Positions 2,387 to 58,972 of a DNA stretch of 63,410 nucleotides are shown here, piece after piece. Position 1 is the first letter of the stretch, and every line of letters begins with the position of its first letter. The DNA is taken from positions 1-63,410 of IMG/VR virus record IMGVR_UViG_3300012363_000003. One strand, given 5' to 3'. Position numbers and translations under genes: made by a program. The notes beneath the pieces are model-generated. The model saw nothing but the letters and a program-made list of their open reading frames with translations, did no database searches and was not told the origin of the DNA. The DNA comes from a virus.

Positions 2387-3232
2387 ATGTTTGCTCGGAA
2401 GACTTCTCAAGTGCTCCTCTCCTTACTCCTGATGAGAGAGACAGTGCTTACCCAACCGGAGTTCGCGTTCCGGGCGGGGGTGGTGGAAGGGTTACTCCCA
2501 TCAGTCCTGCGCGTAATTGAGCAAGCTGGTCTCATTCTGATTGTACCACAGAAGGTCAATGGGGCCGACAAGGAGATTATTCATGACTTGGTTGCGGCGT
2601 ATGTTGTACCCCTTGCTCTACCCTTACTACATCGTTCGGTACAGGCACACGATCAAGGAAGCACTAGCATTGGGGATAGAGGAGCAGTCCCGCCGATTAA
2701 TGGAAGAGGTCAGAACGGGGAGATACTATCGCCCAACCTGTTGCGAGGAGCTAGCGGAGGAGATTGGAAGGTTGATAGACTATCGCGGCGCGGGGGTAGT
2801 GACAGCGGAGGAGTTGGTGAGACAGATCAGGATGCAGATGGGTCTACGCTCGACCTCTGCCGAAGAGCAGACGAAGCAGGGAACAGAACCGATCAAATAA
2901 AGGCACTCCAGGCTGCATGGGACGAAGCATTCCCGGTGGATCAGTACGACTACGCATACCAGAGGCTTACTGATGCGACTGCTAAGAAGTTCCTGGTAGG
3001 GAGGACTGCTGAGGAGGTGGCTGAGGTTATACTTGATGCTCCCAGGCGTGCAGGAAAGCAGATAAAGTGGCTCAAGGCGTACATCGAGGCATCTCTGGCA
3101 GGCATAGATAGTAAGAAGCAGCAACAGTCTGAGGATGAACCGATTATTACTGATGAGCTTAGAGATTTAGTGAGATTAGCAGGAGAACAAAAGCGTGCAA
3201 AGCGTCGTGTCCAGCCCTCACAAGGCAATTAG
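2387..3232 (+). CDS. Hypothetical protein (281 aa); the middle part is ambiguous against the overlapping +1 frame ORF 2541..2900
   Basis: Good RBS GGAGGGGAG before ATG 2387. Residues ~85-170 are Gly/Ser/Asp/Arg-rich, while the alternative frame looks helical. Confidence 0.4.
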   Translation: MFARKTSQVLLSLLLMRETVLTQPEFAFRAGVVEGLLPSVLRVIEQAGLILIVPQKVNGADKEIIHDLVAAYVVPLALPLLHRSVQAHDQGSTSIGDRGAVPPINGRGQNGEILSPNLLRGASGGDWKVDRLSRRGGSDSGGVGETDQDADGSTLDLCRRADEAGNRTDQIKALQAAWDEAFPVDQYDYAYQRLTDATAKKFLVGRTAEEVAEVILDAPRRAGKQIKWLKAYIEASLAGIDSKKQQQSEDEPIITDELRDLVRLAGEQKRAKRRVQPSQGN

Positions 3233-4196
3233 TGCTGCAACTACCAGTGATGAGCTACTCAAGGACTTTGATGAAGCCCTCACCAACCCACGAGAAATCT
3301 TCGGCTATGGGCGGTACGGGGATGGACGTAGGTGGGCCAATTTGGACAAGCTGACGGGTGGCCTGCAAAAGAGGACCCTTTCTGTGTTGGCTGCTCGTCC
3401 CAAGGTAGGCAAGTCTATGCTGGCAACAGATATTGTACCCTTTATTGCGGAACAGGCACTCATGGAAGAGCGGGTCGTACGTATCATATCTCTGGAAATG
3501 TCCAGGAAGGCGTACCAGAGACGGATGGCTGCGATCATGGCAGGTGCAAACCCGAAGAATATCAGAACGGGGTTTGCGGATAAGTACGAGCAGAAGAGAT
3601 ATCGTGCGGCTCTGGCTACATTGGCGGCACTACCTATAGAATACTTGGCTGTGGAAAAAGACCTGGATGGGGATGAGACGCTGGTAGAAGGCAACTCGAC
3701 AATTACTATTGCTGATGTTATTCGGTTTGTTCGCGGGAGTGGGGATACCTATTGGTGGCTCTTGGATCACATAGGTTTACTCAGCGATCTGTCGGCCTAT
3801 AAGGATGTGACCACGAACATCTATGCCCTTGCGAATAAGTTAATGAACCTGGCCCATAGAACCGCTGCTGGCCTTGTTATTACTCACCTCAACCGGGCTA
3901 GTGCGGGGCGGCGTCCATCTATTGATAGTATAGCCAACAGCGATCAGGTAGGAAAGTGTGCCGACGTGCTTTTCTTTCTCAAGAGGCCCTTCTATGAGGA
4001 GGACATAAGTGAGGAGGATCGTGCTTTGGTTGAGCAGGAGAGAGTGGAGGCAGCCTTCCTTGAGTTTCAATCCAGGGATGAGGGTGGTGGTGTGGTCTAT
4101 CTCCAGTGGGACATGGACAGAGCAGCCTTCGATGAGATGCAACTTGCTCCTGGGGTAAGGCCGCGTATGCCCACAGCCAGGAGTCGCAGGAGGTGA
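3195..4196 (+). CDS. DnaB-like replicative helicase, RecA-type C-terminal domain only (333 aa)
   Basis: Walker A AARPKVGKS, ISLEMS motif and LLDHIGLL Walker B-like motif. It sits among replication genes. Confidence 0.7.
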   Translation: MQSVVSSPHKAISAATTSDELLKDFDEALTNPREIFGYGRYGDGRRWANLDKLTGGLQKRTLSVLAARPKVGKSMLATDIVPFIAEQALMEERVVRIISLEMSRKAYQRRMAAIMAGANPKNIRTGFADKYEQKRYRAALATLAALPIEYLAVEKDLDGDETLVEGNSTITIADVIRFVRGSGDTYWWLLDHIGLLSDLSAYKDVTTNIYALANKLMNLAHRTAAGLVITHLNRASAGRRPSIDSIANSDQVGKCADVLFFLKRPFYEEDISEEDRALVEQERVEAAFLEFQSRDEGGGVVYLQWDMDRAAFDEMQLAPGVRPRMPTARSRRR

Positions 4197-4200
4197 GGCA

Positions 4201-4566
4201 ATGAAGAGGGCAACAGTGCTTGAGTACGACAGCGGTGTTCCTGGACCGGAGGCTGGTTGTAAGGCTCTCTGGTTTATGTACCGCTGGGGTTTGTGGGGCT
4301 ACCTTGGGGACCTTGGGATGGAGAGGGCAGTTGCCGAGCCTGCACTGTTGGTGTTCGACCAAAGCAATGTTGTTATCAAGAAGCCAACGAAGACGCAATG
4401 CAGGCTGTTGGAGGAAGTGCCAGGCTTTGCAGATGCCAGGCGAGAGTTACAGCTTGCCTACATCTTAAAATACTACAGTGATGAGCAGGAGGCGAAGAAG
4501 AGTGGCAAAGTTTTATCACGCAGAAGTAAAGTCCATCCGGCCCGCAGACTCAGATCAACGGGCTGA
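4201..4566 (+). CDS. Hypothetical protein (121 aa)
   Basis: ORF in the co-directional array. Its 3' end overlaps the next ORF. Confidence 0.45.
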   Translation: MKRATVLEYDSGVPGPEAGCKALWFMYRWGLWGYLGDLGMERAVAEPALLVFDQSNVVIKKPTKTQCRLLEEVPGFADARRELQLAYILKYYSDEQEAKKSGKVLSRRSKVHPARRLRSTG

Positions 4567-4780
4567 GGGGTTGGCGCGGCATTGGGCCGGGGTGGTGAAG
4601 TCCCTTGGCGGCATGGTAGATGTGGTCAGGATGTATGGAGATGCCCCAGCGATCTTGGCATGTACATTTGAATATGATGTGGACTTGGGGGTACTCAACA
4701 ACCTATTCGGTCTTGAGTTCCGGGAGGTTCATGCTACCCAAGTTCAGGCGGTGAAAGATTATGGCATTCCAGGAGATTAA
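4478..4780 (+). CDS. Hypothetical protein (about 92-100 aa; GTG 4502 after AGGAGG is an alternative start)
   Basis: ORF in the array; start uncertain. Confidence 0.45.
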   Translation: MMSRRRRRVAKFYHAEVKSIRPADSDQRAEGLARHWAGVVKSLGGMVDVVRMYGDAPAILACTFEYDVDLGVLNNLFGLEFREVHATQVQAVKDYGIPGD

Positions 4781-5066
4781 GGCTTATGTGCCTGGACGGG
4801 TGTGGGAGGTGCTTGCTGGCAGCGAAGATGTGGAGGTAGAGGAGCTAATGGACGTGCAAGTAGGACTGACGTACCTCCCGCCAGCAGAGAGTACCTTCAT
4901 TATTCGGTTGAGTCAGGGGTATACCGGGAAGCAAGCTATGAGTGAGGCACATCTCAAAGGCAACCAAACCCGCTTAAAAACAGACATATTGATGAAACTA
5001 ACGGAGATAATCAATGGGAAAGGTGAAGATGACAAAGCTGGACCACATAAAGCAGCAGGCGCATAA
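4761..5066 (+). CDS. Hypothetical protein (101 aa)
   Basis: ORF in the array. Confidence 0.5.
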   Translation: MAFQEIKAYVPGRVWEVLAGSEDVEVEELMDVQVGLTYLPPAESTFIIRLSQGYTGKQAMSEAHLKGNQTRLKTDILMKLTEIINGKGEDDKAGPHKAAGA

Positions 5067-5247
5067 GCTCAGTCTCACGCGCAAAGAGGTGCTGGTGCTT
5101 ATGAACGAAATCACGAAGACGACCGAGGAGTTGAGGAAGCTCGGGGCTACTGTTGCCGGGGACTTTTCTGATGGTTTCGCCGTGACCCTGCCTGTCGAGG
5201 ACCTGATAAGCCCCGACCTACACAAGGAATGGATAGGAGAGAGCTAA
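5014..5247 (+). CDS. Hypothetical protein (77 aa; ATG 5029 is an alternative start)
   Basis: ORF in the array, predicted helical. Confidence 0.45.
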   Translation: MGKVKMTKLDHIKQQAHKLSLTRKEVLVLMNEITKTTEELRKLGATVAGDFSDGFAVTLPVEDLISPDLHKEWIGES

Positions 5248-9529: not shown

Positions 9530-10448
9530 GGTAGACATACGGTTGGCTGTTGGGGAGCCGCACGGAGACGCGCCAATTATGCTGATCTGCCCCTTCCATA
9601 AGGACGATGTAGGCTCCCTGGCTGTCTACCGGGGCAATCTTCACTGCTACGGGTGCAACTGGCATATTAAACGGCGCTACTCCTCTCTGGCCTTCCTGTT
9701 GGGGCTATGGAGTGGACGGGGGAGTGAGGACGGGATCATGGCGACGGATGCGGTGAAGAAGATTAATCTGGGGAAGTTTGTCAGCGGGAAGCCCGAGAGG
9801 GGTCCGGCAGCGAAGTTCATTCCGCCACCCCCCGACCCAACCACTGTAGAGGCATTCCACCAATACTTCCTGCGCTATGGCCCGCTGGAGAGCTTCATGA
9901 AGGAGAGGGGATTGAGCCTTGACACGATCAGAAAATACAAACTCGGGTATTCTACAACTCACTTTGTCATACCCGTGCCTAACTTGGAAGGAAGCTGGCA
10001 GACTCTTAGATACCGCTCGGACGATGGGCTGGTCGATAGTGGAGGCGAAGGTTACAAGAAGTACGACGGACTGTATGGAAGAAACCAGCCCGCCCTCTTC
10101 CCCCTATCATCACGTTTTCACGGAGCTGGGGCAATAGATGAGCTTTGGATCGTAGAAGGTGAGCTAGACTCGTTAGCAAGCATTCAGGCAGGTATGACTA
10201 CGTTGACTGTGACGGGTGGAGCGGGGGCTGTGGCAAAGGTCGCTGACATGATCGCTGACGAGTTGCCCTGGCTCCAGATCGGCAGGTGGGTCATTGCCAC
10301 GGACTTAGACCAGGCTGGTGAGGAATGTGCGAATAAACTGCTCGGTTACTTGGGGTGCAATGGTGTTCGAGCACGCTGGGGTCGAGGAAAGGACCTTGGC
10401 GAGTGGTATTCGTCCGGGGGTACAAGAGAGGGGATCAGATATCAATGA
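9504..10448 (+). CDS. DNA primase, CHC2 zinc finger plus TOPRIM (314 aa)
   Basis: CPFHKDDVGSLAVYRGNLHCYGCNWH zinc finger. TOPRIM motifs VEGELDSLA and ATDLDQAGEE. Confidence 0.8.
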   Translation: MKVPINPLEVDIRLAVGEPHGDAPIMLICPFHKDDVGSLAVYRGNLHCYGCNWHIKRRYSSLAFLLGLWSGRGSEDGIMATDAVKKINLGKFVSGKPERGPAAKFIPPPPDPTTVEAFHQYFLRYGPLESFMKERGLSLDTIRKYKLGYSTTHFVIPVPNLEGSWQTLRYRSDDGLVDSGGEGYKKYDGLYGRNQPALFPLSSRFHGAGAIDELWIVEGELDSLASIQAGMTTLTVTGGAGAVAKVADMIADELPWLQIGRWVIATDLDQAGEECANKLLGYLGCNGVRARWGRGKDLGEWYSSGGTREGIRYQ

Positions 10449-14282: not shown

Positions 14283-15473
14283 ATGGATGAGATTATAAAG
14301 TTTGTGCTCGGCGTGTTGGTGCTTGGGCTGCTGGTGGGGATACTTGCCTCCCTCTGGCCCTGGCACATCTTCCTCGCCTTTGGCCTTGTATTAATCGGTC
14401 TCTTTCTTGGTGGGGTGAAGCTGAGGTGGGAATGGGAAAAGCACCAGGTAGACATAGAGGCCAAGCGAAATAGGGCGCGTATTGTCCACGAGTCGGATAA
14501 AGGGGCCTTATACCTAGAGGAGGGTAGGATCAGTGGATATAGCCATGTACTTCCGCAGGCAAAAGTGCAGGAGAAGGCTAGCGGAGTTACAGTACCTATG
14601 CCTTCAAAACCTGGGTACCCCCCGGTCGAGAGACCCACGACACCAAGCACATTTAGCGAGTTGGTACGAGGGGGCTACGTTGCGCCAGGTTCGGATTTCG
14701 TGCTCGGATTTGACGAACGCTCTGAGCCAATTAGGATGTCCACCCTCACTTCTCTCGGGATCGGGGGAGGGCAAGGCTTCGGAAAGACAAGCACCGCTTA
14801 CTTAGTCCTGCTAGAGGCTGTGGTAAAGTATCGTGGAGATATTAGGTTCCTCTTAATCGACCCCCACATTGGAGTGGATGGGGAGGAGACCTTATACGCG
14901 AAAACGAAGGGCCTGGAGCCGTACTTCATGCGGTATGGCGGCTTACCGAACCCAACGGGGCTATACCACGGGGAGGGAGGGCATGTCGCTGGGTGGGTTC
15001 AATATTGGGAGAACGAGTTTATCAGCAGGATGCGCGGTGGAAAGGGGCCGATGTGGGTGCTGGTCATGGATGAAGGTGCGGCTGTGTTCTCTTCACCTGT
15101 TGCTGATGCTGTCAGTAAGCTCCTGGAGAACATAAATAGGCAGGCACGCAAGGTCAACATGTTTGCCATTGTGATCTCTCAGGAGTGGAAGGCATCACGG
15201 ACGGGGGGATCAGCGATGCGAGACTCTATCGTGACCTTCATGCTCCACAACATGCCTACCCGTATCTCTGAACTACTCGTGCCCTCGGATGTAGCCAGAC
15301 AGACACCAAGATTGCGTATAGGGGAGGCTATTCACTTCTGCCAGGGTACGGATAGGCGAGGTATGGTGCCCCAGGCGTCGGTGGAGGATGCGGAGAGGCT
15401 GGTGTCTCTGTACCGTCCCTTTGTTGATGGACTGGCGAGAGAGCTACCATTGCTGGGGGAAGGAAATGGATAG
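14283..15473 (+). CDS. Membrane-anchored FtsK/HerA-like P-loop ATPase (396 aa)
   Basis: Two N-terminal TM spans, Walker A GGGQGFGKTS and Walker B WVLVMDEGA. Confidence 0.5.
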   Translation: MDEIIKFVLGVLVLGLLVGILASLWPWHIFLAFGLVLIGLFLGGVKLRWEWEKHQVDIEAKRNRARIVHESDKGALYLEEGRISGYSHVLPQAKVQEKASGVTVPMPSKPGYPPVERPTTPSTFSELVRGGYVAPGSDFVLGFDERSEPIRMSTLTSLGIGGGQGFGKTSTAYLVLLEAVVKYRGDIRFLLIDPHIGVDGEETLYAKTKGLEPYFMRYGGLPNPTGLYHGEGGHVAGWVQYWENEFISRMRGGKGPMWVLVMDEGAAVFSSPVADAVSKLLENINRQARKVNMFAIVISQEWKASRTGGSAMRDSIVTFMLHNMPTRISELLVPSDVARQTPRLRIGEAIHFCQGTDRRGMVPQASVEDAERLVSLYRPFVDGLARELPLLGEGNG

Positions 15474-16436: not shown

Positions 16437-16723
16437 ACTGGATTGAGGACGAAGCGAATAGGTACTACTTGCAGTATAAGGACTTTGATGGTCATGTACG
16501 GTATTACCCCCGCAAGCCCCCACTAGACAACGAACCGATTAATATGCCAAGGCCACAGAAGGATGCCCTAAAGGATGAGCCTAACGTGTTCGAGGAATGG
16601 GAAGCTCTTTATCCACACAGCCCGTATTATATTGGGTATCCGCCGCAAGCCTCGACCCCGTTTCCTATTGGTGAGAGCGGCACAGTAGACTCTCCGCGTT
16701 GGATCACTACCCGGAGGAAATAA
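16430..16723 (+). CDS. Hypothetical protein (97 aa)
   Basis: ATG overlaps the previous stop. Last gene of the plus arm. Confidence 0.5.
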   Translation: MLDWIEDEANRYYLQYKDFDGHVRYYPRKPPLDNEPINMPRPQKDALKDEPNVFEEWEALYPHSPYYIGYPPQASTPFPIGESGTVDSPRWITTRRK

Positions 16724-21172: not shown

Positions 21173-21423
21173 GCTAGTAACTTTGCTCCTTGTGGGACTT
21201 CTGGTACACGCTCCAGCACCCCACGATCCAGGTCCAACAACCAACTATCCTTCATCACGTCCACCCGGTAGTGCTCAGTCAGTGTTCGTGCGAGGGTCTG
21301 CCGCAGTGCCATAAGTGTGGTTTCATGCTGCTCGATAGCCATGCGGATGGAGCGGAGTACGGGTATGTCCTCGGGCCTGAGTGGGATATTATTCGGTTGC
21401 TCTCTTCTTCTTCGTCTTGACAC
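21169..21423 (-). CDS. Hypothetical protein (84 aa)
   Basis: ORF in the late operon. Confidence 0.45.
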   Translation of the reverse strand: MSRRRRREQPNNIPLRPEDIPVLRSIRMAIEQHETTLMALRQTLARTLTEHYRVDVMKDSWLLDLDRGVLERVPEVPQGAKLLA

Positions 21424-23691: not shown

Positions 23692-25306
23692 GATTGTCTC
23701 CTAGTGCTGCGGCTCGTGCATAGTACGGCCCATTACCCACCGCCTTTGTCGTCCAGGCCGTGCTTACCTTGACTTGTACCAGGACTGATAGGATGGTGAT
23801 AAACTCAGTAACCTCATCCGTGGTGCTGTCCTGGAAGGTAGCAAGGGTTGGGAGCTTCATGAGGAAGTCCATCAGGTTCCAGTCCCAGGCCCCGAGCGTC
23901 AGGTGGAAGACAAAGTTGCCTCCTCCGTATGGTGCTACTTCCACGGATTGTACGAGATAGGTGCCGTCGATCCCGCGTAGAGCATTCGTAATCCTGATCG
24001 ACATGCCTGCCTGGATGCCTGCTTTGTAGGTGTCTACTTTCAGGGTGGTCAGACCGTATGCTTGCTGGGAGAGGAGAACCTTACACCTCTGGACTGCTGT
24101 GGTAAGGTCAAAGATTGTGCTATCGTCAATGGAGCCATCAAAGTACGCCCCGAAGAAGGTGTGGCTACCCTCATCAGTAAGCACCAAAGCTAGTGGAAAG
24201 TTATAGCGATATTTGACCAGGACGGTTACTCCCCCGGCTGGTGCCACATCAAAGGTGGCTATATCACTGCTTTGGTCAATGAGCACCTTCGCTAGGCCCC
24301 CCGCACTAATGAAGGTATTAGCTGGGTCGGACTCGTTTGCCACCCCAACCACCTGCTCCACACCGTTTAATGTGACGTGATACTTCCCATCGGTCTGCAC
24401 GAGTGGGTGGTAGGCCAGGGGGAAGGTCTTGTTGTTCCCATTGGCAAGCATGCTCACATCTTGGGTGAAGTTATTGGAGACCTTTGTTCCGCCATGAAAC
24501 AGAACACGATTGATGATGGAGTTGTCGTCTACCAGGAACTCGGCTACGTTGTGGGGGAAGGTGAGCACAAAGTCCGGTTGGTCACTCAGGTTGAATGGCG
24601 CGGCTGAGACAGATGTGGGGGATACGTAGTGCAGGAACTTCATAAAATCTATGTAGACCAAGAAGCCCGTAACCCCGGATATGGTCTGCAACACCTGCTC
24701 CACGGTCACATTACGGAAGTTCTTTCTCGGGAAGGTATACGCTCCACTCGTGGGAAGGAATGTCAGCTTGACCCAAGGCGCGTACTTCGTGATGATGGCC
24801 GAGATGATCTGTATGTCGGTTTGTGCAGTGAAGACTTCGTTGACCAGAGTGCGCTGTAGGCTGGTGGAATAATCAATCCCCTCCACAGCCGTAAAGTTCT
24901 GCTTCGTATTTCCCAGCACGGAGGTCGAGGTATCCGTCAGCTTCGTCGCATACCCACCAAATATGATCGTACCCCCGGCATCCGTAATAATGATCTCACC
25001 TTGACGTACCAGGCTGGGGAAAAGAGTGTAGTTGATTACCGGGCGTCCAGTCAGAGTACCGCCGAAAGTCCTTGGAACAAACTGGCTGGTGGTAAAATTG
25101 CCTGAAGGTGGAATGGCCTGACCCGCACCTATTGCTTTGTTCGCTGGGCCAAGGGACGTGTTGAACTTGGCGGTGGTTGCGCGGCCTTGTGTGGCACCAG
25201 ACCCGCCCGCACCCGCACCCTGTCCAAGCGTATCAGTGACTACAACGGATAGCTGGTCCACATACTTCGTGATATCCTGTCCAGCTAGAGTGATTGTGTA
25301 GGTCAT
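23654..25306 (-). CDS. Distal tail/tail-tip protein (550 aa)
   Basis: It lies immediately downstream of the tape measure gene, with stop and start abutting. Confidence 0.55.
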   Translation of the reverse strand: MTYTITLAGQDITKYVDQLSVVVTDTLGQGAGAGGSGATQGRATTAKFNTSLGPANKAIGAGQAIPPSGNFTTSQFVPRTFGGTLTGRPVINYTLFPSLVRQGEIIITDAGGTIIFGGYATKLTDTSTSVLGNTKQNFTAVEGIDYSTSLQRTLVNEVFTAQTDIQIISAIITKYAPWVKLTFLPTSGAYTFPRKNFRNVTVEQVLQTISGVTGFLVYIDFMKFLHYVSPTSVSAAPFNLSDQPDFVLTFPHNVAEFLVDDNSIINRVLFHGGTKVSNNFTQDVSMLANGNNKTFPLAYHPLVQTDGKYHVTLNGVEQVVGVANESDPANTFISAGGLAKVLIDQSSDIATFDVAPAGGVTVLVKYRYNFPLALVLTDEGSHTFFGAYFDGSIDDSTIFDLTTAVQRCKVLLSQQAYGLTTLKVDTYKAGIQAGMSIRITNALRGIDGTYLVQSVEVAPYGGGNFVFHLTLGAWDWNLMDFLMKLPTLATFQDSTTDEVTEFITILSVLVQVKVSTAWTTKAVGNGPYYARAAALGDNHDAFPGFATIST

Positions 25307-28396: not shown

Positions 28397-28872
28397 TCAA
28401 GCTCTGCCTTTTTGGGGGGCTGTGTGGCATTCAGAATGCGGGTGGCAATTTCATCAAGCAGGCTGCCATCCACCTCGGTTATCGTCTTCATGTTAATCGG
28501 TACGGGCTGACCGGGGGAGTACTCAAAGGGCCAAAACTTCAGACCGATTAATACAACCATCTTGGTATACGCCGACTGGTCCTGCTTAACGATAGTAGGC
28601 TTTCCGTCTTTGTCCAGGTCGATCTGAATAGCCGCCTTGTTCGCCTTCTGTCGCTCATCAATTGTCAGAGCACGCTTCACACGGATCGGGATTTCTTGCC
28701 CCCGCCAAAGAATGGAGGTCTCTATCCCACGATCATTCGCATCCGAGGAATAGTCCGACCATATGAAACGCTGCTCAATCATATCCTCAGCCATTTGTTG
28801 TGTCTTCTCCTTCAAGTAGGCCACCGTATCAACTATTAGGGGGTGGGACAATCTCTTATCTGGTTTCCGCAT
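28363..28872 (-). CDS. Tail assembly chaperone (169 aa)
   Basis: Assigned by position between the major tail and tape measure genes and by the downstream -1 frame extension. Confidence 0.65.
   Translation of the reverse strand: MRKPDKRLSHPLIVDTVAYLKEKTQQMAEDMIEQRFIWSDYSSDANDRGIETSILWRGQEIPIRVKRALTIDERQKANKAAIQIDLDKDGKPTIVKQDQSAYTKMVVLIGLKFWPFEYSPGQPVPINMKTITEVDGSLLDEIATRILNATQPPKKAELDPLESPSDEAS
28390..28396 (-). promoter_or_regulatory. Candidate -1 slippery heptamer C CCT TTA
   Basis: It has the X XXY YYZ pattern in the zero frame (gac cct tta), 27 nt before the chaperone stop. Confidence 0.5.
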
Positions 28873-31630: not shown

Positions 31631-31979
31631 CAGAGTTGGGTATACCTTCGTGATGGAGGGTATCTGGGTGACGATCAGAGCGGAGATGGCGTTGGCTATC
31701 GGGCCTATGAGGGTATCGTTTGGAGTAAATGGTCCGGGGATGTTACACCTTGCTTATCATTTATGGAAAAGTATATACGTGTTTGGTACTTTCGGGAATA
31801 AAAACGAGAAAAAATTTGTTATCTCTGATATAGACTGAGTTAAGTACAGAGCTACTTCAGAGAGTACTCTTCAGTAGTCAGTCACATACCAGAGCTAGCC
31901 GTAGCCACCCCATGCCCACAGGCACCAGGGCCAGGCACGCTGTTTAGGAAGAAGAGAGGAACCGATTAATATAAGGAGA

Positions 31980-32703: not shown

Positions 32704-33038
32704 CGGGCCTCTCTGCTCTTCAGGTAGTCCCTATGCTCACGGGCCACCTTCCGCACGTCCTCATGCGCGCTCTTCACCGCATCAGCAAACCAGTGCATGA
32801 AAATCTCCTCGGCATTATCCAGACCCCTCACCCTATCCATGAAGCTACCCACCACATTATGTGCGGTCTCGAACTTGCTACCCGCCCACTCTACGTCCTC
32901 TTCCAGCGCCTCGATCCACACCTTCGACTTCTCCCCTATCCACTCCTCGGCATCATTCACGCTGTCGTTGAGGTCGGGCACAATCGGGGCGGGTTTCCGG
33001 GTTGGCCTGGTTTTATTAATCGGTTTCTCTTCTTCCAT
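32700..33038 (-). CDS. Hypothetical acidic protein (112 aa)
   Basis: ORF in the array. Confidence 0.5.
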   Translation of the reverse strand: MEEEKPINKTRPTRKPAPIVPDLNDSVNDAEEWIGEKSKVWIEALEEDVEWAGSKFETAHNVVGSFMDRVRGLDNAEEIFMHWFADAVKSAHEDVRKVAREHRDYLKSREAR

Positions 33039-38054: not shown

Positions 38055-39652
38055 GGTCCCGATCCTAACTGGCGGGCTATCTCACTCGACGCGCCTCTAT
38101 TGTGCCCATTGCCTGTTTGCTCGCCTGCTCCACTCCTGGTCGGGCCACCAGCGGAGGAGCGTACTCTGATCTGTGAAGAACCCTCTGGACCGGAGAGACC
38201 CACCGCCGTAGATGCACCCTCAACCGCAATGACCTCTTCAGCCATCTTGCGTACCATGTCTACGGGTATCCATGCATTACCAGTGAATATTAAGGACTCT
38301 TCGCCACCTGGGATACTGGTCAGCCCCTTGCGGTTCCTGATCTCGTTCGGCTTGAGAATGCCCATCTTCTGATAGTTCGTGTCGATCTGGCTCATCAGGA
38401 AGTCGTCCCGCGAGTCGATCTCTTCGTAGTAGAACTCCAGGTCCGTGTAGCCGAGGGTGTTCCAAAGCAGCTTTCTGGTCATGGTCTGGCAAATCTCGTC
38501 CAGGAGTGGCTCGATGGCTCTCTTCTTGAAGGTGAAAGATAAGTTATACCCATTCGACCGATTAACGTCCTGGCTCTCCCCTAGCTCCTGCATGGTCACA
38601 CCGAGAATGCCCATGATCTTCATGCGGAACTCTTTGAGAAGCTCTACGGCCTCCAGGTCCTTCAGGTGGTAGCCGAAAGGTATCCACTTGGACCCAGCAC
38701 CCTTGGAGCCGGTCATGAGGATGCGGTTGCCTGTCTTGCCCTGGTCATTCCAGTTAGCAATCGCCGCCTTTAGCTCGGTCTCGGTCACATCCCCTAAATC
38801 AAAGACGCCAAACGGGATGTTGGAGTCCGTAAAGCGCTCGGAGATAAACTGCATCATCGTGTCTTCCAGGATTGCAGCAGTAAACAATTGGACTATCCTG
38901 GAGTGTGGGTAGACGGACTCTGATATGGGATTGAGCGAGAAGAGCATGACCTCCTCCGGCTCCCACCCATGTAAGCTGGTCCCAGGTGCAGCGTTGGCAT
39001 CTATCGAGGTTGCACTAGAGCCGCCGTAGTTCGGAGCAGATGGGTGCGAGGTTACTCCCATATTCATACCCTGCGGGAACTCGTACATGCTACTACCATG
39101 GGGCTTCCCGATGATTGGCGTGCCTCTGGCGTCAAGCATGTCGTAGCCCCGGATGTACCCGTGCTCATCGAAGTCAATACGAAGGCGGGCTGAGTCCATC
39201 ACCCACATATCAGGGCTTTCGGGGTCGTCGGTAGGGACCAGTTCCACAGCCCCATACCCGAATGTGATGATGTCCCGCATTAAGGTCAGGATAAACTGCC
39301 GCTTGGTCTGGTCATCGTTTGGCTTCTGGAGTATGCGGCGGACTTTCCTGGCCTGGTTCTTGGGTACGGGCTTGGCAGGGTCTACATTCCGTATATCTAT
39401 CTTGACCCCACCAGCAAAGTCCAGGATGGCATTCATACAAGCAGCCGCCGTAGGAGTTCTCAGCACGACTTCCCTCATACGTGGCCGGGAAATCAGACCT
39501 GTTGCGTCCTGTGCCACCTGCTCCGGGTATGGCTGGCCCCAAAGCGGAGAGACACCGAGAGCAAAGCCCGAAACCGTCCCGCGCCCAGCAGAAGACTCAT
39601 TCCTTTGTGGTGATATGAGCGTTCTGAGAGCCTTAGTCAGTAGGTTTGGCAT
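38051..39652 (-). CDS. Portal protein (533 aa)
   Basis: Assigned by size and by its position directly downstream of the large terminase. Confidence 0.75.
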   Translation of the reverse strand: MPNLLTKALRTLISPQRNESSAGRGTVSGFALGVSPLWGQPYPEQVAQDATGLISRPRMREVVLRTPTAAACMNAILDFAGGVKIDIRNVDPAKPVPKNQARKVRRILQKPNDDQTKRQFILTLMRDIITFGYGAVELVPTDDPESPDMWVMDSARLRIDFDEHGYIRGYDMLDARGTPIIGKPHGSSMYEFPQGMNMGVTSHPSAPNYGGSSATSIDANAAPGTSLHGWEPEEVMLFSLNPISESVYPHSRIVQLFTAAILEDTMMQFISERFTDSNIPFGVFDLGDVTETELKAAIANWNDQGKTGNRILMTGSKGAGSKWIPFGYHLKDLEAVELLKEFRMKIMGILGVTMQELGESQDVNRSNGYNLSFTFKKRAIEPLLDEICQTMTRKLLWNTLGYTDLEFYYEEIDSRDDFLMSQIDTNYQKMGILKPNEIRNRKGLTSIPGGEESLIFTGNAWIPVDMVRKMAEEVIAVEGASTAVGLSGPEGSSQIRVRSSAGGPTRSGAGEQTGNGHNRGASSEIARQLGSGP

Positions 39653-39664
39653 TAATCGGGCTTT

Positions 39665-42317: not shown

Positions 42318-42374
42318 GCATCTCTCTCCTTTGTATCGCCCAGCATCCCTATCTCCTTATATTAATCGGTCTCG

Positions 42375-42680: not shown

Positions 42681-43878
42681 CCTATCTCCTCGTCTGGTTT
42701 CTATCCTTGGCTTACGCTCAGGCTAAAGGTCCTATCTCACGGGAAATAATCAGGGAGTATTGTTCACGCAGCCCCCTCGCCCATTAAGCCTTACGACCCC
42801 GATAGCTTCTGCGACTTCCCGGCTAGCCCACTCATCGTGTTGGGAAATAATGGCTGGACTGTTTAACGTGATGCAGCCACATGTCCACGATCTACCAGCA
42901 GACTAGACTTTATCCGCCATAAGGAGTGGAGCGGGTCTACCGATTAAGAGATAGCTGGTCTCTTGGTAAAGCTGCCCATGCGCCTGGAAAACTCCTCCTT
43001 TTACCTCCCCTGAAGAGTCACACTGGCAAATACTCGGGGAGCCTTTTTACGTGCTATCCCCACTTATGGCCTGAGTACACGATTTCTACTAGTATCCTGA
43101 ACGAGGTCAACCGGAAACCCCCAAGAGCATACCAGCCGAAATATCCACCAGCAGACCAGGACATGATCGTACTGGCAGAAGCTAGCTGGCGTTATAACGT
43201 GTAGGCACCCCACGATCTACCTGTTCTTCTCAGCCTAGATATACGCCGACAGAACGAATATATCCTTGGCTCAGAACGGCACATGTCTCTGTCACACGGC
43301 CTGGCAAATATCTGGCGCGGGGATGGGGGTCCCTTAGACCCGAGGGGGCTTCGGACCAGAGGGCTTTCCGCACGCCAGCCGGAGAGAGGGTTCGTAAGTG
43401 AGTCTCATGCCCGCGAATGGACCGTACTTAAACTCGAAACTCTGCAAGGCTATATACCTTTACCTACACATACATTATACCATTTCTATAACCTATTTTT
43501 AATTACACTAGAACCACCTATAATCCCTAGTTTATTCAGAGAAATAAGAAAAGGAAAGGAGCCGATTAATATGTGGGGAGGGGGAGAGAGTATGGGCGAG
43601 CCTGCGTGGGAGTGGTTCTAGAGGTGGTGGTATTTTGAGAGACAAGTACCGGGGCGGTCGGCGCGGCAAGCTCAGCAATACCCGCATACCGTCTGCTTGC
43701 TTACTGTGGCTCTACAGGCTGGTCCATGGCATACTTATCGCCTCAACGGATGTGCTTATCCAGCTAGCGACCAGTGTACTGTGGACTGGCCCTGGGAGCG
43801 GGTCGGTGGCGGGCTGGAGCTTGAAGGCGTGATAGCACTATTATCAAACACATCACTGCTATGCTTGCTTCCATCGGC

Positions 43879-43906: not shown

Positions 43907-44531
43907 GGCAATGGTAGAGCTTAATGCTATGGATTGGCTTCGGACCTACAGTATGGCTCTACAGGCTGGTTGAGAGGCAGTATCCTGAGAAGTGGGCTTG
44001 TGGCACTGTGGCCTACACACTGCAAGGAGGTGCTGTGATAGAGCAGCAGCATGTAACCGTTCCTATATAGGCATATGACATGAATGGTTGAGCTTATTGC
44101 CAGTATGCCTGGAATAGCTCACTAGAGACACGTAGGACAGAGACGATTAATAAGACTGCTACCAGGCATAGCTAGCATCACCCCTGCCTTCCCTATCCCC
44201 GCATATTAATCGGTTGCCTCTCTCTATTCCCTAGCAGCACATACTTGACAGATAGCAAAGGGTATAGCAGGAATATACCAATATGTAGCATAGATACAAC
44301 ATGTGCTCAATACTCGTGTAGACCAGCCTGAGAAGCGTGTTCCAGCGATTTAGGCAATTCTAGAATTCTAGTCACTACTGGTACTTATGTATGGCTAGGT
44401 CCTATGCTATTGATGAGCTTATTCCGCAATTGCTAGAATGAGGTCTGGAGTGGCTTTACACATCAAACCAGGACTAATTGGCTATGCAAACAGGACCTCT
44501 AAAGCATAGGAAAATAGTACCAATGGTCCCC

Positions 44532-49125: not shown

Positions 49126-49187
49126 AGCGAGACGGGAAGAGAAGAAACCGTTTAATATGGCTAGCAAGCATTAAGGAGTTTGCACCG

Positions 49188-50048: not shown

Positions 50049-50259
50049 TCCCCACCCGGCATATTAATCGGTTTCGTCCCATTCATTGAGTCTGGAGGTG
50101 TGACATGTAATGGTGCTTGAGGCCACACAAATAGCCACCCACATAACCCCATAGCGTTGGAACTTCAGCGTAAACCTTGGGTGGCTCATACTTCCCTGCT
50201 CCACACCACGGCGTCGTGCTTAGGGTGAGGCAGAGCAGTGTGAGATAGGAGTTCGCACA

Positions 50260-52241: not shown

Positions 52242-52479
52242 GTCCAGCAGACCCGAAGTCCTGCCAGACCGAGGGTACCTGATACCAGAGGAGCCTGAGT
52301 ACCGCATCTACGCATCGAGCCAGGATGGAGTGCCCGTTATCAGGGACATTTGTGGTGATGAACGGCTTCGGCTGGCTCTGGCAGTAGTCAGAGAGTGGTT
52401 CCCGGAGGATACGATCTTTGTACGTGAGGTCATTGAGATTGTCAGAGAGGCAGCAGGACCGATTAATACCACAGGGTAA
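52234..52479 (+). CDS. Hypothetical protein (81 aa)
   Basis: ATG 52234 overlaps the previous stop. Confidence 0.45.
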   Translation: MNESSRPEVLPDRGYLIPEEPEYRIYASSQDGVPVIRDICGDERLRLALAVVREWFPEDTIFVREVIEIVREAAGPINTTG

Positions 52480-53847: not shown

Positions 53848-54132
53848 GTGGATGCAGAGGAGAAGAGGTTTATCGAGTGGCTCAGGAAGCAGCCCAAGAC
53901 CCGGCACTTCGAGACAAGAAACAACGATCACTGCCCGCTTGCTGCATACTATCAGGAGGTATGGAGCCTGAAGTTTGCCCAAAGCATTGACTTTGCATGG
54001 CAGCGGCAGTTTATGTACTGGTTTGACCGTGGCCCATACTCACCAGGACCAATGTTCCGTACCCTGGATGGTGTGGAGCAGTGGATAGATGCCGAGGAGA
54101 GGTTTGGGGGGTTGCCTTTGCCGACATATTAA
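53848..54132 (+). CDS. Hypothetical protein, tandem paralogue 2 (94 aa, GTG start)
   Basis: VDAEEKRFIEWLRKQPKTRHFETRNNDHCPLAAYYQEV; RBS AAAGGAG upstream. Confidence 0.55.
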   Translation: MDAEEKRFIEWLRKQPKTRHFETRNNDHCPLAAYYQEVWSLKFAQSIDFAWQRQFMYWFDRGPYSPGPMFRTLDGVEQWIDAEERFGGLPLPTY

Positions 54133-54145
54133 TCGGTTCGGAGCC

Positions 54146-54376: not shown

Positions 54377-55312
54377 GTGGACCTACACGGAGCCATCGAG
54401 GAGTTCCTATTGAGCAAAGGGACCTCGTGGACAGCAAAAACATTCAAGTGGAACAGCTATTTTTTAGGCCGTTTTGAGAAGTGGTGCAGGGAGAAAAGCA
54501 GCCCGATTAATAAGCTGGAGCAGATAACCCCCACCCTGGTCCAAGCCTTCGCCGCCGACACCACCCCCAACACCCACACCCGCCACGCCCGCGCTCAGAT
54601 TGTGAAGGGCTTCCTCTCATGGTGTGCAAGCGATGCGGAGACCGGAGTGAAGCGGGGAATGGTGGAGCGGATAGAGATGCCCAGGCTGGTGCAGTCGGAC
54701 GTAGAATTGTTTTCTGCGGAGGACATTAATCGGTTGCTGCGTACATGCGAGGGCCTTTACTACCCGCACAGGAACAAGGCACTCATCCACGTCCTGCTCG
54801 ACACCGGGATACGCGCCTCAGAGTTGTGCTTCGACAGTGATCGGCCTGCGGAGCTTACTGGCCTGCGTATGGAGAACCTTTACCTGAGCCGGGGAGAGGA
54901 TGCATACCTACGTGTCATGGGGAAGGGACAGAAGGGACGCACTGTTGGGTTTGGGCACGAGACGAGCCTGGCAGTGCGGCGCTACCTGAACCGAGAACGT
55001 GTGGGCAGCAGCGAGTTCGTATTCCTGGCTCAAGGGGGAGCACCACTCTCTGTTCGTATGTTGCAGCACTTTCTTGACGATCTTGGGGAGCGGGCTGGCG
55101 TACCTGACTGCCACGCACACCGCTTCAGACATACCTTTGCAGTCAGTCAACTTATGGCGGGCACCAGCGACCTAGTATTGATGAGGTTACTGGGCCACAC
55201 GTCCTTGGAGGCAACAAAAATCTACACCCGTGCTATGACCCAGGTGCAGGCGAGACGGGCGGCACCGAGCATCATGGACAGAATGAAAGGGAGGAGTTCG
55301 CATGTTAGATAA
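54377..55312 (+). CDS. int: Tyrosine recombinase/integrase, XerC/D-like (311 aa)
   Basis: C-terminal catalytic pattern TGIRASEL ... HRFRHTFAVSQL ... LLGHTSLEATKIYT (R, HxxR, H, Y). Confidence 0.85.
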   Translation: MDLHGAIEEFLLSKGTSWTAKTFKWNSYFLGRFEKWCREKSSPINKLEQITPTLVQAFAADTTPNTHTRHARAQIVKGFLSWCASDAETGVKRGMVERIEMPRLVQSDVELFSAEDINRLLRTCEGLYYPHRNKALIHVLLDTGIRASELCFDSDRPAELTGLRMENLYLSRGEDAYLRVMGKGQKGRTVGFGHETSLAVRRYLNRERVGSSEFVFLAQGGAPLSVRMLQHFLDDLGERAGVPDCHAHRFRHTFAVSQLMAGTSDLVLMRLLGHTSLEATKIYTRAMTQVQARRAAPSIMDRMKGRSSHVR

Positions 55313-56036: not shown

Positions 56037-56884
56037 ACAAGGATAATGGCCTTGGAACAGCACTACGCTGGGTTCGCACTGCACAACACTACGCAGCGGT
56101 TTTCGCAGAGGGGCTGATCTTGCTTGCGTTTGCTATGTCCAGTGTGGATGTATCCATTGGGGGCAGGCTGGCAAGTATACCTTTGTTGGCGTGGATGTGG
56201 GCTGCTGCGTTCGCTTTAGGCATTGACACTTCGTTCATCCTGTCATGGATACGAGTGCGGGAGATCATACGGGACAAGAAAACGAAGAAGCGGCATCTTT
56301 GGTGGGCGATCCCATTGGCGCTAGGAATGGGCTTCATTGTGTTCCAGCCTGTCGCCGTTCAACAGCTACAGCAGTCAATGAACATTAGTTTCAACGCTGC
56401 CCTCGCCAACCTGGGGATAAACCTGAACGTATTAGTCTACGCGAGGAGCCTGGTAGCAGTGATGCTCGGCGCTGTTCTGGCGATGACCAATGTTGAACAG
56501 GCACCCAAGACAGATGCACATAAAGTTGTCCGGGTAGTGGCAGAACCAGTGGCAGAGGTGAAAGCGAATATACCCGCTGAGTTGCCAGAGAAGGCGGAGA
56601 GTCTGGTGAACAAAGAGGTGATAATGGCGAAGTTGCTGGCGAACCCAGGCGAAAGTATGGCGAACCTGGCGAAGGAAACAGGAGTCCCACGGTCAACCCT
56701 GCGATACTGGCAGCAGAAAGGGCAGTTTCCGCAGGGCAAACCGGACAAGCTGAGGTTAACCCTGGATACACTGCAAGACAACCCAGGCATTACTGACGAA
56801 GAGTTGGCGAGGGTACTATCAATTAGCCGACCGTCCGCCGCAAGGTTCTGGCGGTTGAAGGCAAAGGAGTTAGGCAATGATTGA
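56033..56884 (+). CDS. Polytopic membrane protein with C-terminal helix-turn-helix regions (283 aa)
   Basis: Four to five hydrophobic spans, then NLAKETGVPRSTLRYWQQKG and ITDEELARVLSISRPSAARFW. Confidence 0.55.
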   Translation: MNKDNGLGTALRWVRTAQHYAAVFAEGLILLAFAMSSVDVSIGGRLASIPLLAWMWAAAFALGIDTSFILSWIRVREIIRDKKTKKRHLWWAIPLALGMGFIVFQPVAVQQLQQSMNISFNAALANLGINLNVLVYARSLVAVMLGAVLAMTNVEQAPKTDAHKVVRVVAEPVAEVKANIPAELPEKAESLVNKEVIMAKLLANPGESMANLAKETGVPRSTLRYWQQKGQFPQGKPDKLRLTLDTLQDNPGITDEELARVLSISRPSAARFWRLKAKELGND

Positions 56885-57294: not shown

Positions 57295-57634
57295 GGAGTT
57301 AACCCAGGAGAGCAAAGAGCAGGTGGATGCATTCATGGGCAACGCTATGGTTGGTGATCTGTACAGCATTGCAGACTTCCAAGTGGACTGGCTGAGGGAG
57401 CACGTCAGCAACCTCGTCCAGACCGTGACGAAGAAGAAGGATAATAAGGCAACGATCTTGACCAGCCGGGAGTGGAAGAGCTTATCACGGGCCTACCTGA
57501 ACCTCTATAACCTACTCTCGGGTATGCCTAGCTACATGGGGGACTACTTCACTGGTAGGGAGCATGAGTTCAAGGACGTGGAGCGGTGGGAAGAGAGGCT
57601 TTCGGAACCGATTAATAAAAGGAGCAAGAGGTGA
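57278..57634 (+). CDS. Hypothetical protein (118 aa)
   Basis: ORF in the array. Confidence 0.5.
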   Translation: MTTSYEELTQESKEQVDAFMGNAMVGDLYSIADFQVDWLREHVSNLVQTVTKKKDNKATILTSREWKSLSRAYLNLYNLLSGMPSYMGDYFTGREHEFKDVERWEERLSEPINKRSKR

Positions 57635-57924
57635 GTATGGACTGTAGAGATGTTGTTGCCAGATACGTGCGCCTCGATGGGGGTCTGTCTTCCGTCGCAT
57701 TCTCGTGGCACAACACGAAAACTTGTCTGGATGCAGAAGTAAGTATTGTCGGGGGCTTTGAACGCATCCTTCTTTCCCCATCAGCAGCACTTGGATTGCT
57801 AAAGTGGTTACAAGAGAACGAGGCATTACTAAAGGAATTAGAGGGGGTCGAGGAGAAACCCCTTCCCATCTCTCCCTACACAGGCGAACCATACGACCCG
57901 GAGTGGGGATGGGGGATTAGATGA
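57631..57924 (+). CDS. Hypothetical protein (97 aa; GTG 57631 or ATG 57637)
   Basis: CCGATTAATAAAAGGAG lies upstream. Confidence 0.5.
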   Translation: MSMDCRDVVARYVRLDGGLSSVAFSWHNTKTCLDAEVSIVGGFERILLSPSAALGLLKWLQENEALLKELEGVEEKPLPISPYTGEPYDPEWGWGIR

Positions 57925-58170: not shown

Positions 58171-58272
58171 ATGATTTGGGTGTACATTTCCGTTGGCTTT
58201 GTGGTGGCAGTAGTCGTTCTGGTTGCCGCTGTGTCTATAGTGGGATCAATTTTGGATAGGAGCAGACGATGA
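58171..58272 (+). CDS. Single-TM mini-protein (33 aa)
   Basis: RBS AAGGAGTTCGATTG before the ATG; span ISVGFVVAVVVLVAAVSIVGSIL. Confidence 0.4.
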   Translation: MIWVYISVGFVVAVVVLVAAVSIVGSILDRSRR

Positions 58273-58622
58273 AGGACAGAACCTTGGGTAGCCCAAAGCG
58301 AGCCTATACATTCACCAAGGACGGCCAGGAGTACGAGACGAGCAACCTGATGGCCTTTTGCCGGGAGCACGGGCTTCAGCGGAGGCACATAAATGAGGTC
58401 GTCCAGGGGATCAGGAAGTCACACCACGGCTTCTCGTACTCTGCTGAGGATCAGAAAGACGTAGAGCTAGAGACCGTGCTACAGGCTGCGGAGATAGCGG
58501 CAAGGTCCAGCGGGGATGCGGATTACGAGGCGTTGGTACTGCGGAGAACGGCGAAGGTCAGGGCTGGCGAGCCGATTAATATACGGCAAGATAAGTACGG
58601 CTCGATCACCGTTCTCGACTGA
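58269..58622 (+). CDS. DNA-binding-type protein with NUMOD1-like HTH (117 aa)
   Basis: NLMAFCREHGLQRRHINEVVQGIRKSHHGFSY resembles the HTH module of homing-endonuclease-associated proteins. It ends 29 nt before the site array. Confidence 0.4.
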   Translation: MKDRTLGSPKRAYTFTKDGQEYETSNLMAFCREHGLQRRHINEVVQGIRKSHHGFSYSAEDQKDVELETVLQAAEIAARSSGDADYEALVLRRTAKVRAGEPINIRQDKYGSITVLD

Positions 58623-58650
58623 TGGTCTCGCTGACTCTCGACCCTTCGAT

Positions 58651-58766
58651 GGGTACACTTGTCACCATAAGGGTGCAACCGCGAGGGGTACATATGTCAC
58701 CACTATGGGTACAATTGTCACCATTGTGGGTGCATGTGTACCCATCGAGGGGGTGCGTTTGTACCC
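58651..58766. repeat. Array of 5-6 imperfect palindromic 16-17-bp sites (GGGTRCA-NN-TGTMACC), phased at about 21 bp
   Basis: Sites start at 58651, 58671 (weak), 58686, 58707, 58728 and 58751. Confidence 0.75.
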
Positions 58767-58852
58767 ATACCCAACTCGGTATAAATCGGCCACCCTTTAG
58801 CTTGGGGAGTGGGGCCAGGTGGGTAAGCTCTGCTGTGTGGATCGGCCAAAAG

Positions 58853-58874
58853 GTAAGTATGTTTATATACTTAC
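58853..58874. repeat. AT-rich inverted repeat GTAAGTAT-GTTTAT-ATACTTAC, followed by an 85-nt polypyrimidine tract
   Basis: Read directly. The tract 58875-58960 is almost entirely C/T on the plus strand. Confidence 0.7.
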
Positions 58875-58972
58875 TCTTTATCTTCTATCTCTCTTATATT
58901 AATCGGTATTTTCCCCCTCTCTATTCCTATCCCCTACCCCTTTCCCTTCCTCTCCCCCAAATCAAAATGCAC

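Follow-up and report, generated by a model that had tools for sequence, protein, structure and literature searches.

We analysed the 63,410-nucleotide genome of a soil virus, IMG/VR virus record IMGVR_UViG_3300012363_000003 (the whole stretch is called the window below), in which a nine-nucleotide word, CCGATTAAT, recurs in 18 exact copies, nine on each strand (about 284 per Mb). The copies may be dispersed binding sites of a transcription regulator encoded by the phage itself, a candidate reading to which we assign a probability of roughly 0.45. Within this reading, the protein that reads the word is probably P0001, a stand-alone helix-turn-helix (HTH) protein of 101 amino acids that resembles region 4 of sigma factors and is encoded in the replication module (4761..5066, plus strand). 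The word was specific to the phage, it persisted in relatives while its positions turned over, sister words were found in related prophages, and no orientation rule was followed; these features argue for a trans-acting, phage-encoded reader of double-stranded DNA. A role in gene expression is favoured by the enrichment of copies at gene boundaries, by their fixed place before ribosome-binding sites and by a copy before the first late gene.

The word is strongly enriched in the phage genome

The word had been noticed in a first-pass annotation of the sequence, which gave the correct coordinate and strand for every one of the 18 exact copies. One hundred dinucleotide shuffles yielded an expected count of 0.24 (at most one copy; none of the 100 reached 18). 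A higher-order background had been named beforehand as a check; the enrichment survived it, as a third-order Markov model expected 0.23 copies, and a compositional artefact was thereby ruled out. In the whole window, CCGATTAAT and its extensions ranked first in word enrichment at every length from 8 to 12. The form ACCGATTAATA was observed 12 times versus 0.02 expected, and one-mismatch forms of CCGATTAAT, including all seven that the annotation listed, were found 18 times versus about 8 expected, approximately a twofold excess. The degenerate form CCGWWTAAT gave 24 copies in the window.

An extended consensus had also been proposed, which was correct as far as it went and left out a purine run of 12-15 nt upstream. 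The fuller motif consists of this run (GAAGAGArrAA) followed by ACCGATTAATA(T); the run is 75% purine and is present also where the copy is antisense to the local gene. When the 18 copies were aligned, A was found at -1 in 13 and at +9 in 15, and TAATAT lay within the core in 10. A long-form subset (31962, 42361, 57608 and 58898, with 43562 and 44205 related) extends as (T/A)AAGGAGAT(A)G(R)G. The sequence GATAG(G/A)G is common to five long-form copies, with an A 17 nt past the first C of the word. The longer flanks described earlier as common to 42347 and 44191, and to 44218 and 58917, were present.

The word is rare in candidate hosts

The window is the whole virus record with direct terminal repeats (63.4 kb) and is a complete temperate siphovirus. 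Its minus strand carries the genes of the terminase, portal, major head and tape-measure proteins, and the genome encodes a DnaB-like helicase, a family A DNA polymerase, a primase, a PD-(D/E)XK nuclease, two endonuclease VII proteins, a GIY-YIG protein and a tyrosine integrase. The two endonuclease VII genes (11002-11481 and 59051-59365) and the LEM-3-like GIY-YIG nuclease gene (15596-16033) all occur in this one phage. No DNA-level relative was found among the catalogued phages of the phage collection, and the terminase was less than 30% identical to the terminases of Thermus, Halorubrum and other phages. Among RNA runs, none was found to contain this phage. A 35-nt piece of the tRNA-Ser-like fragment upstream of int was found exactly in seven genomes, all of them Ktedonobacteria or unplaced Chloroflexota. 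Contigs from soil runs matched only at the 39-nt tRNA-Ser-like piece at 54259-54297, diverged on both sides of it and showed a depth spike there, a pattern that fits an attP core common to host tRNA-Ser genes. Terminase homologs with 51-54% identity were found as syntenic prophages in 4 of 169 genomes of the class Ktedonobacteria. On the grounds of the attP tRNA-Ser fragment and the related prophages, we therefore place the host in Ktedonobacteria (Chloroflexota), at the level of the class rather than of a species. Within the library that was searched, no paper dealt with phages of Ktedonobacteria or with their regulation.

The frequency of the word in candidate hosts, another check that had been proposed with the first-pass annotation, was low. 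Five candidate Ktedonobacteria hosts with the same attP tRNA-Ser fragment contained 6-36 copies of CCGATTAAT in 4.8-9 Mb, that is 1-4 per Mb versus 284 per Mb in the phage. This density is near that of a reversed-word control and about 70-260 times lower than in the phage, which ruled out a host-wide motif such as uptake sequences, Chi or polar motifs.

These data also bear on the view that the word has no function and arose as a by-product, whether of composition, of codon use, of a peptide that recurs or of a motif found throughout the host. All 10 sense copies within genes, variants included, read CCG-ATT-AAT (Pro-Ile-Asn), and one copy in relatives arises from a conserved polymerase peptide, LNPI(N/K)D; both observations speak for a by-product. 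However, another frame contains TAA and the third would need the codons CGA, TTA and ATA, so that the frame bias is probably a coding constraint. Moreover, the enrichment survived the third-order Markov model, candidate hosts lacked it, and copies were found on both strands and in non-coding DNA. A by-product is already largely refuted, and we regard its chance as negligible.

Copies are found at gene boundaries in both orientations

Gene calls were made with a home-made heuristic of this analysis. By these calls, 11 of the 18 copies were intergenic or at most 45 nt from a gene end, versus 32% expected (P = 0.01), and they concentrated at gene boundaries and in two regulatory gaps, at 42.3-44.3 kb and 54-59 kb. 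The long-form copy at 42361..42369 (minus strand) lies immediately upstream of the first late gene's ribosome-binding site; the start codon of this gene is 23 nt past the first C of the word. A second long-form copy, at 57608..57616 (plus strand), lies immediately 5' of the ribosome-binding site of the open reading frame (ORF) 57631-57924, the GTG of which is again 23 nt past the first C. A start codon 23-24 nt past the first C, with AAGGAG in between, was found for these two copies and in the relatives L009 and L010; start codons at that distance occurred in just 6 of 36 copies. The AAGGAG that had been reported to follow three copies begins 2 nt past the nine-mer at 31962, 42361 and 57608.

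Several further copies lie at the ends of genes. The one at 39651..39659 (minus strand) is placed between the terminase stop and the portal start and, as claimed before, overlaps the portal ATG (39652). A long-form copy at 31962..31970 (plus strand) is intergenic, 10 nt past the stop of a kinase gene, and is directed back into that gene; it forms a convergent pair with the copy at 33015..33023 (minus strand), which occupies codons 6-8 of ORF 32700-33038. The two convergent copies (31962-33023) share about 25 nt (GGAAGAAGAGA..ACCGATTAATA) and lie around a three-gene kinase cassette (31980-33038); of the two, the relative G001 kept only the 31962-side copy. The copy at 50063..50071 (minus strand) is located 15 nt past the stop of a DUF932 gene and directed back into it, that at 52459..52467 (plus strand) is at the 3' end of ORF 52234-52479, and that at 58572..58580 (plus strand) is at the 3' end of the gene of the NUMOD-like HTH protein, to the left of a palindrome array. 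The ORF at 58622-58993 is probably no gene. Its stretch contains this array, a phased series of palindromes of the GGGTACA..TGTCACC type, along with an AT-rich inverted repeat and a tract of polypyrimidine that is long.

An ORF-poor hub contains the copies at 43562..43570 (plus strand) and 44205..44213 (minus strand). The ATG of the mini-ORF noted earlier at 43571 comes directly after the first, and a TTGACA was found, as reported, 31 nt on from the second. The two copies form an imperfect inverted repeat of about 35 nt (43540-44240; ..CCGATTAATATGYGGGGA..GGGA..) that flanks 640 bp, within which lies a promoter-like TTGACA-16-TATCGT at 43879.

Two identical promoter-like sites, TTGACT-17-TATACT, were found at 54146-54174 and 58973-59001, the former preceding attP and int and the latter the second endonuclease VII gene. 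The first-pass annotation had placed reverse copies upstream of such boxes, and this was borne out. The copy at 54128..54136 (minus strand), which overlaps the stop codon of 53848-54132, is 9 nt upstream of the first site. The long-form copy at 58898..58906 (minus strand), in the polypyrimidine tract right of the palindrome array, is 66 nt upstream of the second.

The remaining copies are inside genes. Those at 2693..2701 (plus strand, gene 2387-3232, frame CCG-ATT-AAT), 16535..16543 (plus strand, ORF 16385/16430-16723) and 54503..54511 (plus strand, integrase gene) are sense, and those at 14390..14398 (minus strand, gene 14283-15473), 28544..28552 (plus strand, gene 28363-28872) and 54725..54733 (minus strand, integrase gene) are antisense. 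The variant CCGAATAAT was found on the minus strand at 296..304, at 4899..4907, inside the gene of the candidate reader, and at 21388..21396, there with a purine run. The variant CCGTTTAAT was found at 9666..9674 (minus strand), 24363..24371 (plus strand) and 49148..49156 (plus strand), the last with a purine run.

With respect to local transcription, about nine of the 18 copies had the same orientation, six the opposite one and three were undecidable. The opposite-oriented copies at 31962, 50063 and 54128 are at or just past a stop codon and directed back into the gene. Stoperators, the mycobacteriophage sites with which the word had been compared, lie predominantly in one orientation relative to transcription (PMC6550527). 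This defining rule fails in the window, and the related prophage G146a described below departs from it as well (10 same, 17 opposite).

We also examined 36 non-redundant sites at all offsets for a promoter partner. No offset showed a -10-like (TANNNT) or -35-like (TTGMMW) hexamer above background, and a bipartite promoter element, in the manner of a -35 box or a MotA box, was rejected for lack of a partner at fixed distance. A promoter of a single block is a different matter: the word, with its -10-like TAATAT, would form the core of a promoter class specific to the phage and be used by host RNA polymerase together with a phage factor, like the 8-bp T4 late promoter, and transcription would start about 7 nt downstream. 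Consistent with this, TAATAT is present in 10 of the 18 cores, the A of the five long-form copies with GATAG(G/A)G is at the expected start position, in three relatives the first late gene has a copy before it, and the candidate partner has a sigma domain. However, 6-8 of the 18 copies are directed against local transcription, many copies are deep in genes, and no sigma region-2-like partner was found, the fold of P0002 being unrecognised (see below). In the best-placed copies, moreover, the start would fall at the 3' edge of AAGGAG and give leaders of 6-7 nt that lack this site. We consider such a promoter quite unlikely.

The spacing of copies in the window was not regular (coefficient of variation (CV) 1.02), and no strand switch marking an origin was found, plus- and minus-strand copies (nine each) being interleaved. 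Contigs of four soil runs contained no strand-changing joints at the possible invertible segments 43562/44205, 54503/54725 and 58572/58898, a weak result given that contigs drop rare forms.

A second enriched word, (T)AAGCTCATC(AAT), occurred in 16 exact copies versus 0.55 expected (25 copies as TAAnCTCAnC), at sites that include 3152, 7074, 27185, 44412, 52478 and 61584. About 11 of the 13 exact copies in called genes were antisense, the sense strand reading GAT-GAG-CTT (Asp-Glu-Leu), and three copies were intergenic. Either an effect of peptide or codon use or a DNA signal with strand polarity could account for this word.

Relatives keep the word while its sites turn over

Viral contigs with an 88-91% identical terminase contained CCGATTAAT: G001 had five copies in 29 kb, and L009, L010 and L012 had one or two each. 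The word was absent from contigs with a 63-67% identical terminase. One of the latter, the 20-kb relative G002 (67%), contained 10 dispersed copies of ACCCGnAGnC on both strands (ACCCGGAGAC, 4-5 exact), which is possibly its own equivalent word. Metagenome contigs of the replication module with 64-77% nucleotide identity were denser in CCGATTAAT (L055, six copies in 13.6 kb; L059, four in 5.2 kb), and their copies occupy places without a copy in the window.

Altogether, the word was kept in relatives across 65-83% nucleotide identity, and most of its positions differed from those in the window. In G001, the copy at 31962 was kept within a region of 75% identity, and those at 28544 and 39651 were not. 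Some copies in relatives fall where the window has near-misses. In the window, L009 and L010, the first late gene has a copy immediately ahead of its ribosome-binding site, in surroundings that are non-homologous. The polymerase gene of L053-L055 and L059 contains a convergent pair of copies; the antisense copy is spelled ACA-TTA-ATC-GG and uses the Leu codon TTA, in contrast to ACT-CTT-GTG-GG at this place in the window. This spelling looks like selection at the DNA level. Of the positional conservation that the annotation had proposed to check, the word itself and the site at 31962 held, and most positions turned over. The comparison of these sequences shows that the word is maintained while single sites appear and vanish.

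Related prophages carry sister words

In the prophage G146a (terminase 53-54% identical), GCCGWWTGA was found 34 times, always from 24.7 to 71.3 kb of the stretch analysed; the 33 kb of flanking sequence lacked it. The 10.7-Mb G146 genome contains 33 copies of GCCGATTGAG, six of which fall in the 47-kb prophage, a density approximately 50-fold that of the rest of the genome. The two middle positions vary alike in the window phage and G146a (ATT, TTT, AAT). In the 7-Mb genome G049, the 13-mer GCCGATGATATGA was found seven times. Six copies lie in two prophage regions that carry a P0001-like gene, and the seventh adjoins a near-copy on contig C2. Four copies and one variant are clustered ahead of the late operon, within 700 bp that contain no gene, and two are in the second prophage, on another contig. 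The sequence CCGAT is common to CCGATTAAT, GCCGWWTGA and GCCGATGATATGA.

At the corresponding place, between the early and the late operon, the prophages G148 and G146b carry tandem arrays of palindromes instead: GAACATGTTC at about 13390-13620 of L038 (G148), and CGTTCATTnnAnTGAACA with 22-bp spacing at L042:12679-12817 (G146b). These look like iterons or operators. GCGAnTGAnG in G148 and G146b was rejected as a sister word, as it is mostly sense and reads Ala-x-Asp/Glu, probably a codon effect. In L042 (G146b), GGAGAAAACACAAC occurred 5-6 times between 13.3 and 31.6 kb; five of six copies are directly before a start codon, and 13284 is without one nearby. This is a start-associated word that includes the ribosome-binding site.

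Next to its integrase gene, the G146a prophage encodes (L036:6614-10279) a 1221-amino-acid fusion in which a TIR domain is joined to a Type ISP-like coupler, an N6-methyltransferase and specificity domains, which looks like a prophage-borne defence gene. The first-pass annotation had offered a modification or restriction-related motif as its alternative. Such a word could be what a phage-encoded methyltransferase or nickase acts on, or could serve as a decoy or self-mark towards host defence. The fusion would suit this idea, as would the asymmetry of the word and its length of about 9 bp; the alternating strands of the G146a copies (see below) recall the head-to-head need of Type III and Type ISP enzymes. 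However, the ISP-like gene is absent from the window, and neither a methyltransferase nor a matching nuclease domain was detected in scans of about 70 window proteins, several of them without a family match. The known sites of Type ISP and BREX systems have a length of 6-7 bp, and restriction targets are normally avoided rather than enriched. The alternative thus found no support, and we consider it very improbable.

P0001 is a candidate reader of the word

P0001 is accompanied in related phages by P0002, a protein of 121 amino acids (4201..4566, plus strand). All ORFs of the window were compared with five prophage regions by BLAST. Beyond group-wide genes, G146a shared with the window only the P0002-P0001 pair and the integrase, which were unmatched in G148, G146b and G168; this integrase was also found in G049. 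P0001 and its G146a counterpart, encoded at L035:15700-15951, were 27% identical (E = 1e-10). Profile searches detected homologs of P0001 in both G049 prophages and a more distant one in G146b; in the two regions mapped, G049 (C4) and G146b, the homolog is encoded between the helicase and polymerase genes. By exhaustive profile search, the P0001 family comprised 52 clusters, all of 69-119 amino acids. Scans of viral contigs with A1, P0009, P0014 and P0016 for further members of the family gave no match, and a word-based search for P0002 homologs matched the query alone.

An AlphaFold2 model of P0001 showed a five-helix domain with a mean predicted local distance difference test (pLDDT) score of 81.5. 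Nearly all of its top 24 structural matches among 48,161 representative chains were sigma region 4 or -35-binding domains (Z 5-7). They included SigL (Z 7.0, root-mean-square deviation (rmsd) 3.1 over 67 residues), SigD4 (Z 6.9), BldN (Z 6.8, rmsd 1.9 over 57) and SigmaE region 4 bound to -35 DNA. Foldseek returned the same families, with E-values that were not significant. The best solved-structure match of the family profile was an extracytoplasmic function (ECF) sigma factor (E = 0.03), and the Pfam domain Sigma70_r4_2 matched 5 of 47 family members (best E 9e-5). When applied to Chloroflexota genomes, the family profile found region 4 of Pfam-confirmed ECF sigma factors. Judged from the profiles and the model, P0001 is a stand-alone region-4 (-35-binding) domain of the sigma-factor type. 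Sigma region 4 binds the asymmetric -35 element as a monomer.

The predicted recognition helix differs together with the word. It is NQTRLK in the window group, where the word is CCGATTAAT, NSTRLY in G146a, where it is GCCGWWTGA, and SPKRQY in both G049 prophages, which have one helix and one word, GCCGATGATATGA. These pairs of helix and word across three lineages agree with co-evolution.

Other proteins were also considered. The model of P0002 (pLDDT 72.5) gave mixed structural matches (best Z 5.0), and Pfam scans of the window proteins detected no region-2 domain. A split sigma factor with P0002 as region 2 found no support, as the fold of P0002 was not recognised and its matches were mixed at Z of at most 5. 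The FtsK-like protein (14283-15473) was rejected as a reader, with a weak P-loop match only and no homolog in G146a. The HTH proteins at 56033-56884, with two HTH motifs, and at 58269-58622, which is NUMOD-like, had been suggested as readers by the annotation. Neither has a homolog in G146a, which has a sister word, whereas the protein encoded at 4761-5066 does.

This result also bears on classical stoperators, in which an immunity repressor, for example the two-HTH protein 56033-56884, would bind in the lysogen and silence the prophage by a block of elongation, as in L5-like mycobacteriophages. There are points of likeness to the Cluster A system (L5 gp71 and relatives). The site is asymmetric and about 12-13 bp long, some 20-35 dispersed copies occupy both arms of a temperate siphovirus with a tyrosine integrase and attP, short intergenic gaps are preferred, the host lacks the word and the reader presumably acts as a monomer. 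The word also differs among related phages, as it does among Cluster A subclusters. However, Cluster A stoperators lie mostly in one orientation and are read by an immunity repressor (HTH plus stirrup), whereas the copies here have no orientation bias. Neither the 56033 nor the 58269 protein tracks the sister word, no divergently transcribed repressor gene was recognised in the window, and the sole protein that does track the word, the candidate region-4 domain, is encoded in the lytic operon; host phylum and sequence are unrelated as well. We regard classical stoperators as improbable. Of the earlier proposal of a genome-wide regulator or operator system, the general idea fits a word that is phage-specific, kept with turnover, matched by sister words and mostly outside deep coding sequence, and the stoperator model named for it fails.

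A model of regulation and the evidence against it

In the model that we propose, a phage-encoded, sequence-specific protein would recognise ACCGATTAATA and the purine run (degenerate form CCGWWTAAT) and, through sites dispersed over the genome, would act on phage transcription genome-wide. The most likely reader is the 101-amino-acid P0001, a domain of the sigma type that normally binds -35 as a monomer, at an asymmetric site of 7-9 bp. As the P0001 gene is in the replication (early/middle) operon, the protein would be a lytic factor rather than the repressor of lysogenic immunity, and would act in lytic growth, for example in the switch to late genes. We infer all three of these elements: that a protein binds the word, that P0001 is the binder, and the direction of the effect on transcription. 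A bolder form of the model, speculative and on balance unlikely, is that a free-standing region-4 domain reads a -35-like word sown across the phage genome and so marks 'self' DNA for host RNA polymerase or couples transcription to replication, without a complete sigma factor or a bipartite promoter, word and helix co-evolving throughout a group of Ktedonobacteria phages (CCGATTAAT, GCCGWWTGA, GCCGATGATATGA).

Several observations weigh against regulation by P0001. Seven of the 18 window copies are deep inside genes, which is odd for pure gene-expression signals, and in G146a 27 of the 34 copies are inside genes (10 sense, 17 antisense). The G146a copies are spaced more evenly than random (CV 0.60, P = 0.0006) and tend to alternate between strands (24 of 33, P = 0.01), which hints at an architectural or replication role. 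The link between word and protein consists of co-occurrence in three lineages only, and G146b has a distant P0001 homolog, yet no CCGAT-type word was found there. P0001 itself has no Pfam match, its structural matches reach modest Z-scores (5-7) for a domain that is small and helical, and a stand-alone region 4 could equally be a protein-protein module that makes no contact with DNA.

Some of these observations would suit sites of replication, recombination or chromosome architecture, read by a component of the replication module, such as an origin or helicase-loading protein, a cofactor of the primase or an anchor for loops, and marking the phage chromosome at intervals. The P0001 gene is placed between those for the DnaB-like helicase and the DNA polymerase, and the 34 copies of G146a are even, strand-alternating and blind to gene boundaries. 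The iteron-like clustering of the G049 sister word in its 700-bp gene-free region points the same way, as do the palindromic arrays that G148 and G146b have at the corresponding place. In the window, however, spacing is irregular, strands are interleaved without an origin-like switch, and copies prefer gene boundaries and fixed places beside ribosome-binding sites. To our knowledge, no replication protein uses a sigma region-4 domain. A replication or architectural role is distinctly unlikely in our view, and regulation of transcription is the reading that we prefer.

Comparison with other phage systems

A start-associated sequence (SAS) and its extended form (ESAS) in Cluster K mycobacteriophages resemble the word in that they are short asymmetric repeats with no assigned reader, absent from the host, kept across subclusters and often found by translation starts (PMC3203893). 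The subset of copies with a start codon 23-24 nt past the first C recalls their fixed distance. However, the Cluster K SAS takes the ribosome-binding position itself, 3-7 bp from the start, in one orientation and in the non-structural half only (PMC3203893). The word here stands upstream of a normal, separate AAGGAG in about 6 of 36 copies, has both orientations and is also found in genes and in the structural arm; membership in the Cluster K class was therefore rejected.

RinA, a staphylococcal late activator, is transcribed together with replication genes; its C-terminal half resembles sigma region 4, and it binds upstream of terS (PMC3152322). RinA/ArpU activators thus offer a parallel for a small region-4-like phage protein that is encoded with replication genes and has a target upstream of the first packaging gene (PMC3152322). 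In contrast, RinA acts at one promoter region, whereas the word is dispersed in about 24 copies, and P0001 is shorter (about 85-100 amino acids, region 4 only) and had no match to the RinA or ArpU families.

The MotA boxes and late promoters of T4 are also short single words repeated tens of times, with a sigma-domain-like phage factor, which here is a candidate. They redirect host RNA polymerase and are bound to an orientation and to a fixed partner element or start site, unlike the word, for which the 36 sites revealed no fixed -10/-35 partner. In phage P1 (C1 operators) and plasmid RK2 (KorA and KorB), one regulator controls a mobile genome via a dozen or more dispersed sites. C1 operators are asymmetric and KorA and KorB sites palindromic; all are at promoters and are read by unrelated protein families. 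The system described here is similar in having one word and one candidate reader over a whole mobile genome.

Implications for phage biology

This type of system, with one word and one reader for a whole mobile genome, is known; the phage group and the word are new, and the class of the candidate reader is not known in such a role. Genome-wide control through a single word has been well worked out only in a few phages, such as L5-like phages and P1. The present case provides a testable pair, a word of 11 nt and a protein of about 100 amino acids. Related prophages in sequenced genomes supply natural variants in specificity, which could directly reveal the recognition code used by a sigma region-4 domain. 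Binding of the word by P0001 would show that a -35-reading sigma module can act on its own as a phage regulator. Without such binding, a strong, conserved and phage-specific signal still needs another reader. Either way, the word is a useful marker for this group of phages and their prophages.

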